DNA from: a virus
Taxonomy: Duplodnaviria; Caudoviricetes
Strand: one strand, 5' to 3'
Length of the DNA: 64,000 bases
IMG/VR virus record: IMGVR_UViG_3300025133_009061
Coordinates: 1 to 64,000 of that record
Below the pieces are notes generated by a model. The model made no database searches and was not told the DNA's origin. It saw nothing but the letters and a program-made list of their open reading frames with translations. A program made the translations under genes and the position numbers. Below, in pieces: positions 38,648 through 53,898 of this stretch (within the stretch, counting starts at the first letter, position 1; each line of letters opens with the position of its first letter).

Positions 38648-39736
38648 ATGTCTGAGTTTGCCTTACATCTACCGCTTAACGGTGTAAGTTTTGGGCAGGT
38701 TAGCACGTCTCTTCTGCGTGAGTTTCACCGGAAGGGCGTGCAGCCTTGTCTATTTACAATAGGTCAATCTGACTTGTCTTCGCAAGAAACGCCCGAGGAT
38801 TTCAATAAGTGGATTGAATCGGGAATAAAAAAAGCGTTTGAACGCTACGACAGAAGTACGCCTATATTCAAGCTGTGGCATTTAAATCACGACAGCCTGA
38901 CTTCCTACGCGAAAGAACAAACTCTTTTCACTTTTTATGAGTTGGACCACCCAACATCAATAGAGGTGAACATAGCCAATAATCAAAAAACTATCATCGT
39001 AAGCTCCAACTACGCGAAAGAAACCCTAGAAAAGTTCGGTGTCGAAAATTGTAAATACATACCCCTCGGCTTCGATAAGGATAATTTTAACGCTAAAAAA
39101 GAGGAATATCTTAAGGACAAAATCGTCTTTAACCTAACGGGTAAGCTGGAAAAAAGAAAACATCACAAAAAAGTAATACAAGCGTGGCTCAAGAAGTACG
39201 GAAACAATAAAGACTACGTTCTTCAATGCGCTATAGCTAATCCCTTCATGAAAGAAGAAGACTTTAAAGCCAGCGTAAGCCAAATTATGGAAGGCAAGTC
39301 TTACTTTAATGTTAATTTCCTTGGCATGATGCAAAAAAATAGCCTTTATAATGATTTTCTCAATTCTGGAAACATTATTTTGGGTATGTCAGGGGCCGAA
39401 GGGTGGGGTCTTCCCGAGTTTCAGTCGGTAGCCTTAGGGAAACATGGGGTTATTTTAAATGCTTCGGCGTACAAAGATTGGGCGACGGAAGAAAATAGTG
39501 TCATGGTAGAGTCGAATGGGAAAGAAGACGCAGTGGATGGAATATTTTTCAAAAAGGGAACCCCATATAATCAGGGTCAGATTTTTACCTTTGATGAAGA
39601 AGCGTTCATCGAAGGGTGCGAAAAGGCAATAGAAAGATATAAGGCTTCTCCCGAAAACACAGCAGGTCTAGATCTTCAAAACGAGTTTACATACGAAAAG
39701 ACGGTTGAAGCTATAACGGAGGTTATGGATGCCTGA
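38648..39736 (+). CDS. GT-B fold (GT4-like) glycosyltransferase
   Basis: GKLEKRKH and SGAEGWGLPEFQSVALGK (ExxGxP-type motif). Confidence 0.85.
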   Translation: MSEFALHLPLNGVSFGQVSTSLLREFHRKGVQPCLFTIGQSDLSSQETPEDFNKWIESGIKKAFERYDRSTPIFKLWHLNHDSLTSYAKEQTLFTFYELDHPTSIEVNIANNQKTIIVSSNYAKETLEKFGVENCKYIPLGFDKDNFNAKKEEYLKDKIVFNLTGKLEKRKHHKKVIQAWLKKYGNNKDYVLQCAIANPFMKEEDFKASVSQIMEGKSYFNVNFLGMMQKNSLYNDFLNSGNIILGMSGAEGWGLPEFQSVALGKHGVILNASAYKDWATEENSVMVESNGKEDAVDGIFFKKGTPYNQGQIFTFDEEAFIEGCEKAIERYKASPENTAGLDLQNEFTYEKTVEAITEVMDA

Positions 39737-40094
39737 ATACCTTTACGAGAATCCCGACACGGGAGAGCAGGTTAGCGTTTGGCAAAGTGTCCACGAAGAG
39801 CACTCTTATGAAATTGATGGAGTACCTTTCAACCGGGTTTACACAGTCCCGAACGCTTCAATAGATACGCGAATAGACCCCAATTCTCTGTCCGAATTCA
39901 GGGAAAAAGCCAAAGGAAACCTAGGGGATATCTGGGATCAGTCAGCCGAAGCTTCCGAGAAGAGAATCAAAGAGCAGGGGGAAGACCCCGTAAAGAATCA
40001 ATTTTTCAAAGATTATTCAGCGAAAAGGAAAGGGGCCAAACACCCCAAAGACCCAAATAGACTCAAAAAATCAAAAGATTTCACCATTGAATGA
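39729..40094 (+). CDS. FmdB-like zinc-ribbon homologue lacking cysteines
   Basis: MPEYLYENPDTGE...RVYTVP follows the MPxYxYxCxxCG pattern without the Cys residues. Confidence 0.6.
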   Translation: MPEYLYENPDTGEQVSVWQSVHEEHSYEIDGVPFNRVYTVPNASIDTRIDPNSLSEFREKAKGNLGDIWDQSAEASEKRIKEQGEDPVKNQFFKDYSAKRKGAKHPKDPNRLKKSKDFTIE

Positions 40095-40932
40095 TAAAAT
40101 TATATTAGTAAGTGATTTTTTTATTGATGATTTTGTAGGTGGAGCAGCTTTAAATGACGAAGAGATGTACAAGCTCTTATCTGAGCGCTTTGATGCACAA
40201 AAAATAAAAAGTCGTTACCTGTACGAGGGGTTCATCCAAGAGAACCTTGACTCCTTCTTTATAATTTCCAACTTCTTCGGGATTAGTCCCACGATTCGCG
40301 ACCTTATACAAAGTAAGTGCAAATATATTCTGTATTGCCATGATTACAAGTTCGTACAGCACACCAACCCCGCGGCATACCCCGATCAAATTGTTCCACC
40401 TAGAGATTTAATCAATGTAGAGTTTCATAAACATTCCCATAAAATAATTTGCCAAACCCAATTTCAGAAAAATATTTACGACAAAAATCTTAAGTGTCCG
40501 GATAAAACCGTAAGCTTCTCCGGAAATTTATGGTCAGAGGAACACCTAAATCTTCTGGAGAACCTTTTAAAAACAGAAAAAAACGAAAAGTACGCCATAG
40601 TCAACTCTCCTTACCCACAAAAAGGGGTTAAAGAATCGGTGGAATTTTGTAAGAAGGAAAAATTTCCATATGATATTATCGAAGATCCCGACTACGAAAA
40701 ATTTCTCAAGAAGCTTTCCAAATACTCTCGTCTAGTTTTCTTTCCCTCTACCCCCGAAACTTGTTGTCGATTGGTTCTGGAAGCGAAGATGATGGGAGTT
40801 AAAATAGTAACCAACAGTTTGGTAGGGTGCACCTACGAACCTTGGTATGTTAAAGACGGAAAAGAGATGATAGATTTTATGAGAAATAAGCGTAAAGGGT
40901 TTAGGGATTTCTTTAGAAGTATTCGCGGATGA
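40087..40932 (+). CDS. GT-B fold glycosyltransferase-like protein
   Basis: QKGVKES and FFPSTPETCCRLVLEAKMMG. Confidence 0.7.
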   Translation: MNDKIILVSDFFIDDFVGGAALNDEEMYKLLSERFDAQKIKSRYLYEGFIQENLDSFFIISNFFGISPTIRDLIQSKCKYILYCHDYKFVQHTNPAAYPDQIVPPRDLINVEFHKHSHKIICQTQFQKNIYDKNLKCPDKTVSFSGNLWSEEHLNLLENLLKTEKNEKYAIVNSPYPQKGVKESVEFCKKEKFPYDIIEDPDYEKFLKKLSKYSRLVFFPSTPETCCRLVLEAKMMGVKIVTNSLVGCTYEPWYVKDGKEMIDFMRNKRKGFRDFFRSIRG

Positions 40933-40959
40933 AAAATAACATATTAATAATTATTTAGG

Positions 40960-41520
40960 ATGATATGGAATGAAATTCTTTGCTTGGGCGATTCGTTAAC
41001 TTACGGAGCCAGAGATTGCTATGGAAGATCTTACCCTGTTGAGTTAGGTCAAATACTGTATAAAGAGACAGGAGAGCTTTACGTATGTCACAATTACGGA
41101 GTTAACGGAGAAACGACAGCGGACCTCCTAAGGAGATCATGGTCTATTCTCAAATCTAACAGAGAATGCAAAATCGCGCTGTTGTTAATCGGAACTAATG
41201 ATACCAAGAGGCCAACGCCCTTAGAGGTTTACGAAGACAATATGAGACAGCTTATAATGTCAATAAAAGCTAACGGAATGAAACCTATAGTAGGGACCCT
41301 GCCTCCGTTAACTTTTTCTCCCGCCTATGCTCAAAACAGAGAATATACAAAAAAATATTCGGAGATTATTAAAAAAATGTCAGTGGCTTCTAGGTACAAT
41401 TTTGACGTGTGCAATCTTCAGGATCTGGGGTCGTTTTTATTAGACGGGGTACATTTTGACAATGACGGCTATAAAGAAGTCGCAAAAAGATTCAGCGAAA
41501 GCATATTGAAGATGACATGA
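40960..41520 (+). CDS. SGNH/GDSL hydrolase
   Basis: LGDSLT, GVNGET, IGTND, DGVH. Confidence 0.92.
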   Translation: MIWNEILCLGDSLTYGARDCYGRSYPVELGQILYKETGELYVCHNYGVNGETTADLLRRSWSILKSNRECKIALLLIGTNDTKRPTPLEVYEDNMRQLIMSIKANGMKPIVGTLPPLTFSPAYAQNREYTKKYSEIIKKMSVASRYNFDVCNLQDLGSFLLDGVHFDNDGYKEVAKRFSESILKMT

Positions 41521-52455: not shown

Positions 52456-52456
52456 T

Positions 52457-53509
52457 ATGAAAAAAGTACTAATAACGGGAATACTTGGCCAAGACGGAGC
52501 TAACATGGCTGAGTACCTATTGTCTTTGGAAGGCGACATGGAGATATACGGAATGATGCGCCGAACCTCCAACGTTAATAAAAGTAACATTGAAGCCTTT
52601 GAGAACCATCCTAGCTTTAACTTGGTTTACGGTGACTTAACCGACAATATTTCGATCGACAAGGTAGTAAGAGAAATCCAGCCTGATTATTTTATTAATT
52701 TTGGAGCTAATTCCTTCGTAGGGTGCAGCTGGGACATGCCACTACAGGTTTTCGATGTTAATACTTTGGGGGTTATCCGATCCTTGGAAGCTATTAGAAA
52801 GTTTAAGCCGGAGTGTCGTTTTTACAGCGCCGGAAGCTCTGAGGAATTAGGTGATGTGGACTACAGTCCTCAGGACATAAACCACCCCATTAAAGCGAGA
52901 AGCCCATACGGAGCCTCAAAAGCAGCCTCGCGCCATTTAGTGAAAGTTTATAGGGAATCTTACAATATGTTTGCAATCCACAGTATCCTCTTTAACCACG
53001 AAGGACTTCGCCGGGGGGAAGAGTTCGTCACAAGAAAGATTACCAAAGGGGTTGCTCAAATCAAACGGGCAATAGACGCAGGGTCAGACTTTACCCCACT
53101 TCAGCTCGGAAACGTAAACGCAAGGCGAGATTGGTCTGATTCGGAAGACTTTATTAGGGCGGTATGGCTGATGCTCAACCAAAAAGAACCAAAAGAGTAT
53201 GTTCTTTCCAGCAATGAAACTCATAGCGTAAAGGAATTTGTTTCACTAGCCTTCCAAGAAGCGGGAATAGCGGGTTTATGGAGCGGTGAAGGCTTGGATG
53301 AAAAATTTAGAATTTTTCAGGAAAATAAAATTTTAGCAGAAGTGAATGAAGATTTTTATCGTCCTGCGGAAGTTGACCTGCTCTACGGTGACTCTAATCC
53401 TATTCGAGAAGAGTTAGGGTGGAAACCCAAGTTTTCCTTCCAAGATTTAGTCAAAAGGATGGTAAATAATGACCTTGAAATTGCAAAAAAACGGGCTTTT
53501 TCCCCCTGA
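52457..53509 (+). CDS. gmd: GDP-mannose 4,6-dehydratase
   Basis: LITGILGQDG, GDLTD, SSEELG, RSPYGASK, FNHEG.RRGEEFVTRKIT, RDW, RPAEVD.L.GD. Confidence 0.95.
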   Translation: MKKVLITGILGQDGANMAEYLLSLEGDMEIYGMMRRTSNVNKSNIEAFENHPSFNLVYGDLTDNISIDKVVREIQPDYFINFGANSFVGCSWDMPLQVFDVNTLGVIRSLEAIRKFKPECRFYSAGSSEELGDVDYSPQDINHPIKARSPYGASKAASRHLVKVYRESYNMFAIHSILFNHEGLRRGEEFVTRKITKGVAQIKRAIDAGSDFTPLQLGNVNARRDWSDSEDFIRAVWLMLNQKEPKEYVLSSNETHSVKEFVSLAFQEAGIAGLWSGEGLDEKFRIFQENKILAEVNEDFYRPAEVDLLYGDSNPIREELGWKPKFSFQDLVKRMVNNDLEIAKKRAFSP

Positions 53510-53544
53510 GCTTCCTCCCTTGGAGTTTTTCAAAAATACTAGCT

Positions 53545-53898
53545 ATGTGCCCCCTTTGCGAACTAAAAATTAAAATACACACCTATGATGAAACTGACCC
53601 CAGATGGATTATCATCGACTGCATGAGCTGCCTCCTCCCAATGAGCGTGTGGAGGGGCAACCCACTACACACCATGAAGATAGATCCCGTAGACCACCAA
53701 GAGATGGAAGAAGCCCTTCGCAAGGTAGCTAAGGAAAAGTTTAGTAATGAAGATTTTTACATAGATAAGAAGCAAAACGAGATTCCTGACCATCTTCACT
53801 GGCATGCACGCCCTAATGGATGGAAATTTCCTTTAAAATTTCGGATCAAAAATAAAATAATGGGTTTTTATCGAAAACTTATGAGAGACCCAAGTTAA
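53545..53898 (+). CDS. HIT-family nucleotide hydrolase
   Basis: N-terminal CPLC and HLHWH histidine triad. Confidence 0.75.
   Translation: MCPLCELKIKIHTYDETDPRWIIIDCMSCLLPMSVWRGNPLHTMKIDPVDHQEMEEALRKVAKEKFSNEDFYIDKKQNEIPDHLHWHARPNGWKFPLKFRIKNKIMGFYRKLMRDPS

Follow-up and report, generated by a model that had tools for sequence, protein, structure and literature searches.

A putative glycan-assembly island on a conserved frame in the early operon of an uncultured marine siphophage clade

Virion glycosylation by soluble enzymes that the virus itself encodes is known from giant viruses and from some mycobacteriophages, and for the latter it was reportedly described by Freeman et al. in 2023. 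In giant viruses such as PBCV-1 and Mimivirus, and in mycobacteriophages, soluble virus-encoded transferases operate without export machinery and form clade-specific sets; giant viruses also have bacterial-type sugar pathways, including GDP-mannose 4,6-dehydratase (Gmd) and N-acylated 4-amino-6-deoxyhexoses. The C-terminal glycans of mycobacteriophage virions are cited in PMC12619734. Large hypervariable glycan islands have already been described in marine cyano- and pelagimyophages and are experimentally untested (PMC12801897, PMC7029224). Soluble transferases and nucleotide-sugar enzymes are likewise encoded in an island of 21 open reading frames (ORFs) in a stretch of 64,000 nucleotides, hereafter the window (positions 1 to 64,000 of IMG/VR virus record IMGVR_UViG_3300025133_009061), which comes from an uncultured, long-tailed marine phage of about 170 kb. 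A first-pass annotation had proposed that so elaborate a pathway in a siphophage would be a new system. This was overstated, because comparable islands have been published and one module of the island is 36–50% identical to genes of the cultured Synechococcus phage Bellamy. The islands of P-SSM2, S-SCSM1, S-SCSM2R, Bellamy and the pelagimyophages likewise combine soluble transferases with nucleotide-sugar enzymes in lytic marine phages. However, those are islands of marine myophages, and the pelagimyophage cluster lies within the structural and host-recognition region (PMC7029224). What is new here is the siphophage clade, a frame made of a core pair of genes (a GT-B glycosyltransferase and its small partner) and a widely kept Gmd in the early operon, between a sigma factor and RecA, and slot-by-slot swapping of the genes within this frame.

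The island spans positions 38648-53898 (g01 to g21, Table 1). All of its ORFs lie on the plus strand and overlap by 4-23 nt at 15 of the 20 junctions, in keeping with the earlier description of about 20 coupled genes. The genes for attaching sugars form a cluster of soluble glycosyltransferases together with nucleotide-sugar enzymes. The enzyme inventory of the first-pass annotation is correct by family, motif and fold evidence, and its count of up to six transferases of three folds is fair, with a GT-B fold in g01, GT-A folds in others and a weak GT-D-like assignment for g09. The lack of export, polymerase, priming and membrane genes was likewise borne out. A hydropathy scan found no transmembrane (TM) segment in any island ORF and no ORF with at least six TM-like segments in the window or in its relative G001 (170,406 bp, 100% complete by CheckV). 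Neither the window nor G001 yielded a priming phosphoglycosyltransferase, flippase, polymerase, ABC transporter or GtrA/B/C.

Table 1. Genes of the island and of the operon head, with their positions in the window
Feature	Position	Strand	Evidence
g01, soluble GT-B (GT4-like) glycosyltransferase	38648..39736	+	PHROG 2170, E 1e-16
g02, 121-aa basic protein	39729..40094	+	alignments
g03, 281-aa probable transferase domain	40087..40932	+	atlas neighbours viral, some with PF00534
g04, SGNH/GDSL esterase or O-acyl-handling enzyme, and g05, formyltransferase-like (weak)	40960..42260	+	
g06, GT2 (GT-A) glycosyltransferase	42257..42991	+	PF00535, 27 bits against a cut-off of 23.3
g07, WecB (non-hydrolysing UDP-GlcNAc 2-epimerase), and g08, RmlB-like nucleoside diphosphate (NDP)-hexose 4,6-dehydratase	42988..44897	+	
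g09, GT-D-like transferase (weak)	44884..45693	+	PF22882 below threshold, DxE motif
g10, sugar N-formyltransferase-like, and g11, shortened perosamine-synthase-like pyridoxal-phosphate aminotransferase	45671..46935	+	
g12 and g13, two GT-A-fold transferases	46932..48472	+	AlphaFold2 models, fold searches
g14, KdsC-type HAD phosphatase; g15, PfkB-type kinase; g16, nucleotidyltransferase-RpiB fusion	48469..50834	+	
g17/g18, split shortened transketolase-like thiamine diphosphate (ThDP) enzyme	50837..51953	+	PP and Pyr domains, without C-terminal domain
g19, 139-aa GDPD-like protein	52036..52455	+	phrog_34507, E 5e-21
g20, Gmd (GDP-mannose 4,6-dehydratase)	52457..53509	+	PF16363, E 3e-105
g21, 117-aa CxxC protein with HLHWH (HIT-like) motif	53545..53898	+	translation
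Operon head (deoxynucleoside monophosphate (dNMP) kinase, 147-aa ORF, sigma-70-type factor, 116-aa u116)	36685..38647	+	
dNMP kinase	36685-37278	+	phrog_139, E 4e-14
Sigma-70-type factor	37687-38289	+	Sigma70_r2

No close isolate phage was found for the window, and a megablast search of the island against isolate phages gave zero matches. Dozens of IMG/VR contigs are collinear with the window, including G001 and the 144-kb relative G002; these two and G003 are each at least 90% complete. Loci of the relatives were gathered by two anchors, RecA and the sigma factor. Their comparison divides the island into a frame and its filling: g01 and g02 belong to the core of a broad uncultured clade, most of the closer relatives keep Gmd, and g03–g19 together with g21 are a cassette held between g01–g02 and Gmd. 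The block of sigma factor, u116, g01 and g02 is kept in 46 of the 48 sigma-anchored loci. Identity of g01 across 46 loci is 46-87%, its EGWG...E motif is invariant, and it is more conserved than the neighbouring sigma factor (46-58% identical where the sigma factor is only 33-46% identical). The atlas clusters nearest to g01 are all viral (88-100%) and several carry PF00534, for which g01 itself scores 20.4 bits, below the cut-off. The second core gene, g02, is translationally coupled to g01; its N-terminus is like a zinc ribbon without Cys, and its tail reads KKRKGKKHPK. The protein has no Pfam, NCBIfam or isolate-phage match, and among 50,697 isolate records neither g01 nor g02 has a real homologue. 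In its layout g02 resembles an FmdB-type zinc ribbon minus all four cysteines, followed by the lysine-rich tail.

At the other end of the frame, Gmd adjoins RecA, at 61-94% identity, in 26 of the 28 informative RecA-anchored loci. The whole system of one subgroup (L180-L183 and L186) is reduced to g01, g02 and then Gmd directly, followed by ribonucleotide reductase (RNR) and RecA. In a more distant subgroup (L150-L179), Gmd is absent within 10 kb of g01–g02. In L151, the member of this subgroup that was examined, PhoH, a second sigma factor, a nuclease and terminase come after g01–g02, and there are zero sugar genes nearby. The GT-B enzyme g01 is the proposed initiating transferase.

The cassette differs from relative to relative. 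A set of 197 island ORFs from 16 relatives (17 contigs) fell into 132 clusters, 94 of which have no counterpart in the window and are dominated by sugar enzymes. Such clusters include epimerases and reductases, FkbM and other methyltransferases, GT11, GT17, GT2 and Glyco_trans_1_2 transferases, radical SAM enzymes, UDP-glucose dehydrogenase, C-methyltransferases, ThDP enzymes, cytidylyltransferases, NUDIX and GNAT. Even the closest relative is without g04, g05, g17, g18 and g21. The g04–g05 pair has a counterpart in none of the relatives fetched, homologues of g21 occur in only three loci, and the g17/g18 pair is found in seven. Gene boundaries shift as well: ORFs of 536-559 aa in four relatives fuse g03-like and g06-like (GT2) parts, and g12 and g13 are a single fused protein in one of these four. 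In five relatives the slot of g10, directly before g11, holds a GNAT instead of a formyltransferase, which ties an acyltransferase to the aminotransferase. Each phage probably makes its own glycan.

Among the tailoring and nucleotide-sugar enzymes, g04 matches SGNH at E 9e-22, and g07 passes the cut-off of TIGR00236 (211.8 against 210.15 bits). For g08, TIGR01181 gives 317 bits against a cut-off of 365. Of the two formyltransferase-like proteins, g10 reaches 41.5 bits for PF00551 against a cut-off of 26.1, and g05 is weak, with 24.4 bits against the same value and an fmt match at E 9e-8. The best PDB matches of g11, a DegT-type protein of 201 aa, are the GDP-perosamine synthases 3BN1 and 3DR7, and its catalytic Lys aligns with theirs. 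Across at least 12 phage loci this short form (46330-46935) is kept, with identities of 35-93%, and is thus under selection. Of the GDP-N-formylperosamine route (Gmd, Per, WbkC), the island has Gmd, a formyltransferase and a Per-like protein that retains the Lys but has only 201 aa and an internal deletion. No Pfam or NCBIfam match was found for g21, which is recognised only by its HxHxH motif. NCBIfam added nothing for g02, g12, g15, g19 and g21.

Sequence and profile comparison of g09, g12 and g13 with solved structures gave nothing useful, and fold searches were therefore needed for g12 and g13. AlphaFold2 models built on alignments had predicted local distance difference test (pLDDT) scores of 80 and 76 for g12 and g13, respectively. 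The g12 model has a GT-A, nucleotide-diphospho-sugar-transferase fold (VIA Z of 8-9 to GT-A transferases), and that of g13 has a GT-A fold matched by Foldseek at E 1e-7 to TarP, TarS, RmlT and B4GALNT1. For g09, no solved relative was found by profile search; its PF22882 match (E 3.8e-5) reaches 23.6 bits against a cut-off of 27, and its SDGE (DxE) motif is invariant. The assignment of g03 as a transferase is a lead only. Outside the island, a 260-aa ORF (30513-31295, minus strand; phrog_1574) with a sub-threshold PF01762 match (E 0.002) is a possible extra transferase, and it is 72% identical in G001.

The genes g14–g16 look like a non-canonical NDP-sugar module that follows the logic of the NDP-heptose and Afh NDP-arabinose routes with other enzyme families. 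The phosphatase g14 is of the KdsC-type HAD class (E 4e-26), and g15 is recognised as a PfkB kinase from the motifs GG and VNGAGD together with weak profile matches to ribokinase-family kinases. In the fusion protein g16, the RpiB residues D251, H252, C308, H341, N342, R375, H376 and R379 are invariant and T310 is retained; the N-terminal domain corresponds to PF00483 in relatives, and the fusion of nucleotidyltransferase and RpiB has 1175 homologues. The NDP-heptose/GDP-6-deoxyheptose pathway (GmhA, HldE or HddA, GmhB, HddC, DmhA) has the same order of chemistry. Its hallmark combination of kinase, HAD phosphatase and nucleotidyltransferase in one cluster is found here as g15, g14 and g16, and its HldE kinase belongs to the PfkB family, as does g15. 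However, its isomerase GmhA is SIS-type and its HAD phosphatase GmhB-type, whereas the island has an RpiB-type isomerase and a KdsC-type phosphatase; only the nucleotidyltransferase step shares family and subfamily. The Afh route to NDP-arabinofuranose also proceeds by isomerase, kinase, HAD phosphatase and nucleotidyltransferase (PMC13326640). It differs in having an SIS-type isomerase and a kinase fused to the nucleotidyltransferase, in contrast to the RpiB-type isomerase and unfused PfkB-type kinase of the island. The mini-transketolase g17/g18 could supply the ketose phosphate for the module, just as transketolase could feed sedoheptulose-7-phosphate into NDP-heptose synthesis.

The module is not confined to this clade. 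Identity to genes of Bellamy is 50% for g16, 44% for g14 and 36% for g19, a protein with a GDPD motif (HRG..E.D..H) and a weak GDPD match. Like Bellamy, the Synechococcus myophage SynMITS9220M01 carries the module of HAD, nucleotidyltransferase-RpiB and GDPD-like genes, and identities in the two phages are 36-50%; a Gmd-like gene usually accompanies the module. The module also occurs on six genome-bin contigs with guanine-cytosine (GC) contents from 26% to 71%, and g19 travels with g14–g16 in Bellamy and on most of these contigs. A Gmd-like dehydratase lies beside the module in five of the six. Because a 4,6-dehydratase is the usual neighbour, a hexose or heptose is argued for over a pentose. 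The bins are assigned to Methanobacteriota, Crocinitomicaceae, Holophagaceae, Brocadiaceae, Rickettsiales and SAR116; all six contigs have the HAD and nucleotidyltransferase-RpiB genes, and the Brocadiaceae contig is without the GDPD-like gene that most others have. Several of the contigs are short and may be viral DNA mis-binned into metagenome-assembled genomes. Two other pathways were considered for these enzymes: a phosphonate pathway, suggested by a ThDP enzyme with an aminotransferase, was rejected for absence of phosphoenolpyruvate mutase, and a Kdo-type pathway for the KdsC-like phosphatase is unsupported in the absence of a KdsA- or NeuB-type synthase.

The gene families, the conserved frame, the swapping of the cassette and the lack of membrane proteins are observed; the sugars, the order of transfer and the acceptor that follow are inferred. 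The island would be a cytoplasmic glycan-assembly line on a conserved frame, with its enzymes made early, together with the phage sigma factor. In such a line, g01, with its small basic partner g02, would add the first sugar to an acceptor common to the whole clade. Gmd would provide GDP-4-keto-6-deoxymannose derivatives and WecB would give UDP-ManNAc. Passage from Gmd or the RmlB-like g08 through the Per-like g11 to the formyltransferase g10 would yield an N-formylated 4-amino-4,6-dideoxyhexose, or its N-acetyl version where a GNAT stands in for g10. A third NDP-sugar of heptose-type logic may arise from the mini-transketolase through RpiB, PfkB, the KdsC-type phosphatase and the nucleotidyltransferase, with 4,6-dehydration as a possible last step. 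Chain extension would fall to four to five other soluble transferases (g03, g06, g09, g12 and g13), and the SGNH protein would tailor the glycan. A protein made by the phage, most likely one exposed on the virion, is tentatively taken as the acceptor, in which case each strain would display its own glycan type. This assembly line as a whole, although the preferred explanation, is put forward with less than even confidence.

The first-pass annotation had placed the acceptor probably in the cytoplasm on the ground that membrane proteins are lacking. Taken alone, that step is weak, because host lipid-linked glycans, later exported by host MsbA, Wzx or ABC transporters, are routinely the work of soluble or peripheral transferases. 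The g01–g02 pair does tip the balance towards a phage-intrinsic acceptor: because the two genes are core, virus-only and present even without sugar genes nearby, a phage-intrinsic function is favoured over that of an accessory host-surface gene. It is conceivable, though somewhat doubtful, that the clade-wide, virus-only g01, with g02 as its small basic partner, starts a glycan on a phage-intrinsic acceptor and that the swappable cassette turns this glycan into a strain 'serotype', partly by an undescribed NDP-sugar route through the RpiB-nucleotidyltransferase fusion, the PfkB kinase, the KdsC-type phosphatase, the mini-GDPD g19 and the mini-transketolase.

Several observations weigh against a virion-protein glycan. 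The island lies in the early sigma/replication operon, away from the late structural genes. On the plus strand inside 36.6-55.4 kb there is no copy of GTGTAAT, the motif found ahead of the structural genes. Glycosylation of the mycobacteriophage type would lead one to expect Ser/Thr-rich acceptor tags or a sequon excess on capsid or tail proteins. Structural proteins showed no excess of [ST]-G-S, with 15 observed against 17.1 expected in the window and 67 against 52.6 in G001, and Ser/Thr-rich tags were found in neither the window nor the whole of G001, except for one stretch in a 1526-aa G001 protein. The aminotransferase g11 is short of about 40 internal residues and of the whole C-terminal domain, and may therefore be inactive. 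Finally, the set of sugars is equally typical of O-antigens. Separately from these points, a scan of the island for promoters and terminators gave chance-level results. The tripeptides VGI, IGT and GIG, the only over-represented ones, are 3-4 times over-represented across G001 proteins, as in a fibre-type repeat. A repeat of the type NVGIGT is suggested, and it is assumed to lie in the very large plus-strand proteins of 3210 and 1526 aa (G001 139354-153567).

The strongest competing explanation is that the enzymes work on the cytoplasmic side of the host inner membrane, with a host lipid-linked acceptor such as lipid A-core or an undecaprenyl diphosphate-linked sugar, and that host MsbA, Wzx or ABC transporters export the product. 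The altered cell surface would block superinfection or stop progeny from adsorbing to debris. O-antigen transferases often lack TM segments, so that soluble enzymes are compatible with this explanation. The sugars are O-antigen-like (ManNAc, N-acyl-4-amino-6-deoxyhexose and 6-deoxyhexoses), fucosyltransferases and methyltransferases are present, the island is as hypervariable as O-antigen loci, and its predicted expression is early. Consistently, cyano- and pelagimyophage islands have been read in this way (PMC7029224, PMC12801897). The overall architecture also recalls Wzx/Wzy- or ABC-dependent loci and Gtr/Oac cassettes, in which nucleotide-sugar genes and transferases form a variable centre between conserved flanks. 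However, those loci contain a priming transferase, flippase, polymerase, transporter or GtrA/B/C, which the island does not, and the complete relative is without a priming transferase and without a Gtr-type or acyltransferase-3 membrane gene. Deep core genes that persist without sugar genes nearby, as g01–g02 do, would be unusual for accessory functions. Moreover, the phage appears lytic, and surface turnover is slow within one infection. Modification of the host envelope is considered possible but on the unlikely side.

A target in the cytoplasm other than a phage protein may also be considered, such as a host protein, for example of the transcription machinery given the adjacent sigma factor, or a soluble glycoconjugate. 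The tight linkage of g01–g02 to the sigma gene and the solubility of all the enzymes fit this idea, but a hypervariable multi-sugar cassette suits a single conserved regulatory target poorly. We know of no precedent among phages. Such a target is judged improbable.

The first-pass annotation had also named phage DNA as an acceptor; in that case g01 would be the DNA glycosyltransferase and the glycan an anti-restriction hypermodification. The setting is suggestive, since the island lies between the dNMP kinase upstream in the same operon and RNR or RecA with the replisome downstream, and g01 is a GT4-like GT-B enzyme of the class of the RB69 and DLP3 DNA arabinosyltransferases. Glycosylation of 5-hydroxycytosine (5hoC) or 5-hydroxymethylcytosine (5hmC) in the DNA of RB69, DLP3 and T-even phages similarly involves a GT4-like GT-B enzyme near a nucleotide kinase, and the Afh NDP-arabinose logic shared by g14–g16 (PMC13326640) points in the same direction. 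However, the ThyA homologue of those systems was not found in the relatives, and six transferases with N-formyl amino sugars on DNA would be unprecedented. None of the ThyA-like hydroxymethylases or hydroxylases, TET/JBP, C5-methyltransferase or TGT was found in G001–G003, although the TET control matched nowhere and the negative for that family is weak. No hydroxylated-base enzyme was found among the window ORFs scanned, and ThyX (in G001), dCMP deaminase and dUTPase indicate that dTMP is made in the ordinary way. Because every known family of DNA handle enzyme that was searched for is absent, DNA as the acceptor is weakened and now seems quite improbable. If DNA were nevertheless the acceptor, it would be glycosylated without any known hydroxylated-base handle. 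The last explanation, a phage-host chimera or a recent capture of host DNA, which the first-pass annotation had raised against its own proposal, is hardly credible: the genes do resemble bacterial polysaccharide loci, but dozens of independent contigs, the 100%-complete 170-kb genome among them, have phage genes in one and the same order on both flanks, the GC content of the island equals that of its flanks, and g01, g03 and g16 are most closely related to viral genes.

The remainder of the window places the island in a large long-tailed phage, with a tape measure protein of 2249 aa and homologues of M, L, K, I and J that make up a tail tip of the lambda type. Its nucleotide-metabolism set includes a class II RNR, dUTPase and dCMP deaminase, Hsp20 is also encoded, and the replication operon comprises RecA, tubulin, DnaB, primase, a PD-(D/E)XK nuclease, PHP, exonuclease and DnaE. 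In G001, ThyX is encoded at 86486-87043; it was not found in G002 or G003. Directly 3' of RecA lies a homing-endonuclease-like ORF (55051-55467; phrog_9084, weak DUF559) that is kept in relatives. The most membrane-like protein of G001 is a 184-aa ORF with five TM-like segments (165139-165693, minus strand). On the minus strand of the window, at 27170-28925, a cyanophage-type 2-oxoglutarate-Fe(II) oxygenase (PF13759) is found near a small HAD/PNKP-like phosphatase. Hydroxylation could provide a protein or a base with a handle for glycosylation, but this enzyme has no link to the island.

Sugar genes are very numerous in marine phages, and what they are for has never been measured. The clade described here provides a clean frame for a test of their purpose, because a conserved transferase pair and, in most close relatives, a conserved dehydratase surround a cassette that differs between relatives. 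The module of g14–g16 and g19, which cultured phages of Synechococcus also carry, offers a tractable candidate for a new pathway to nucleotide sugars.

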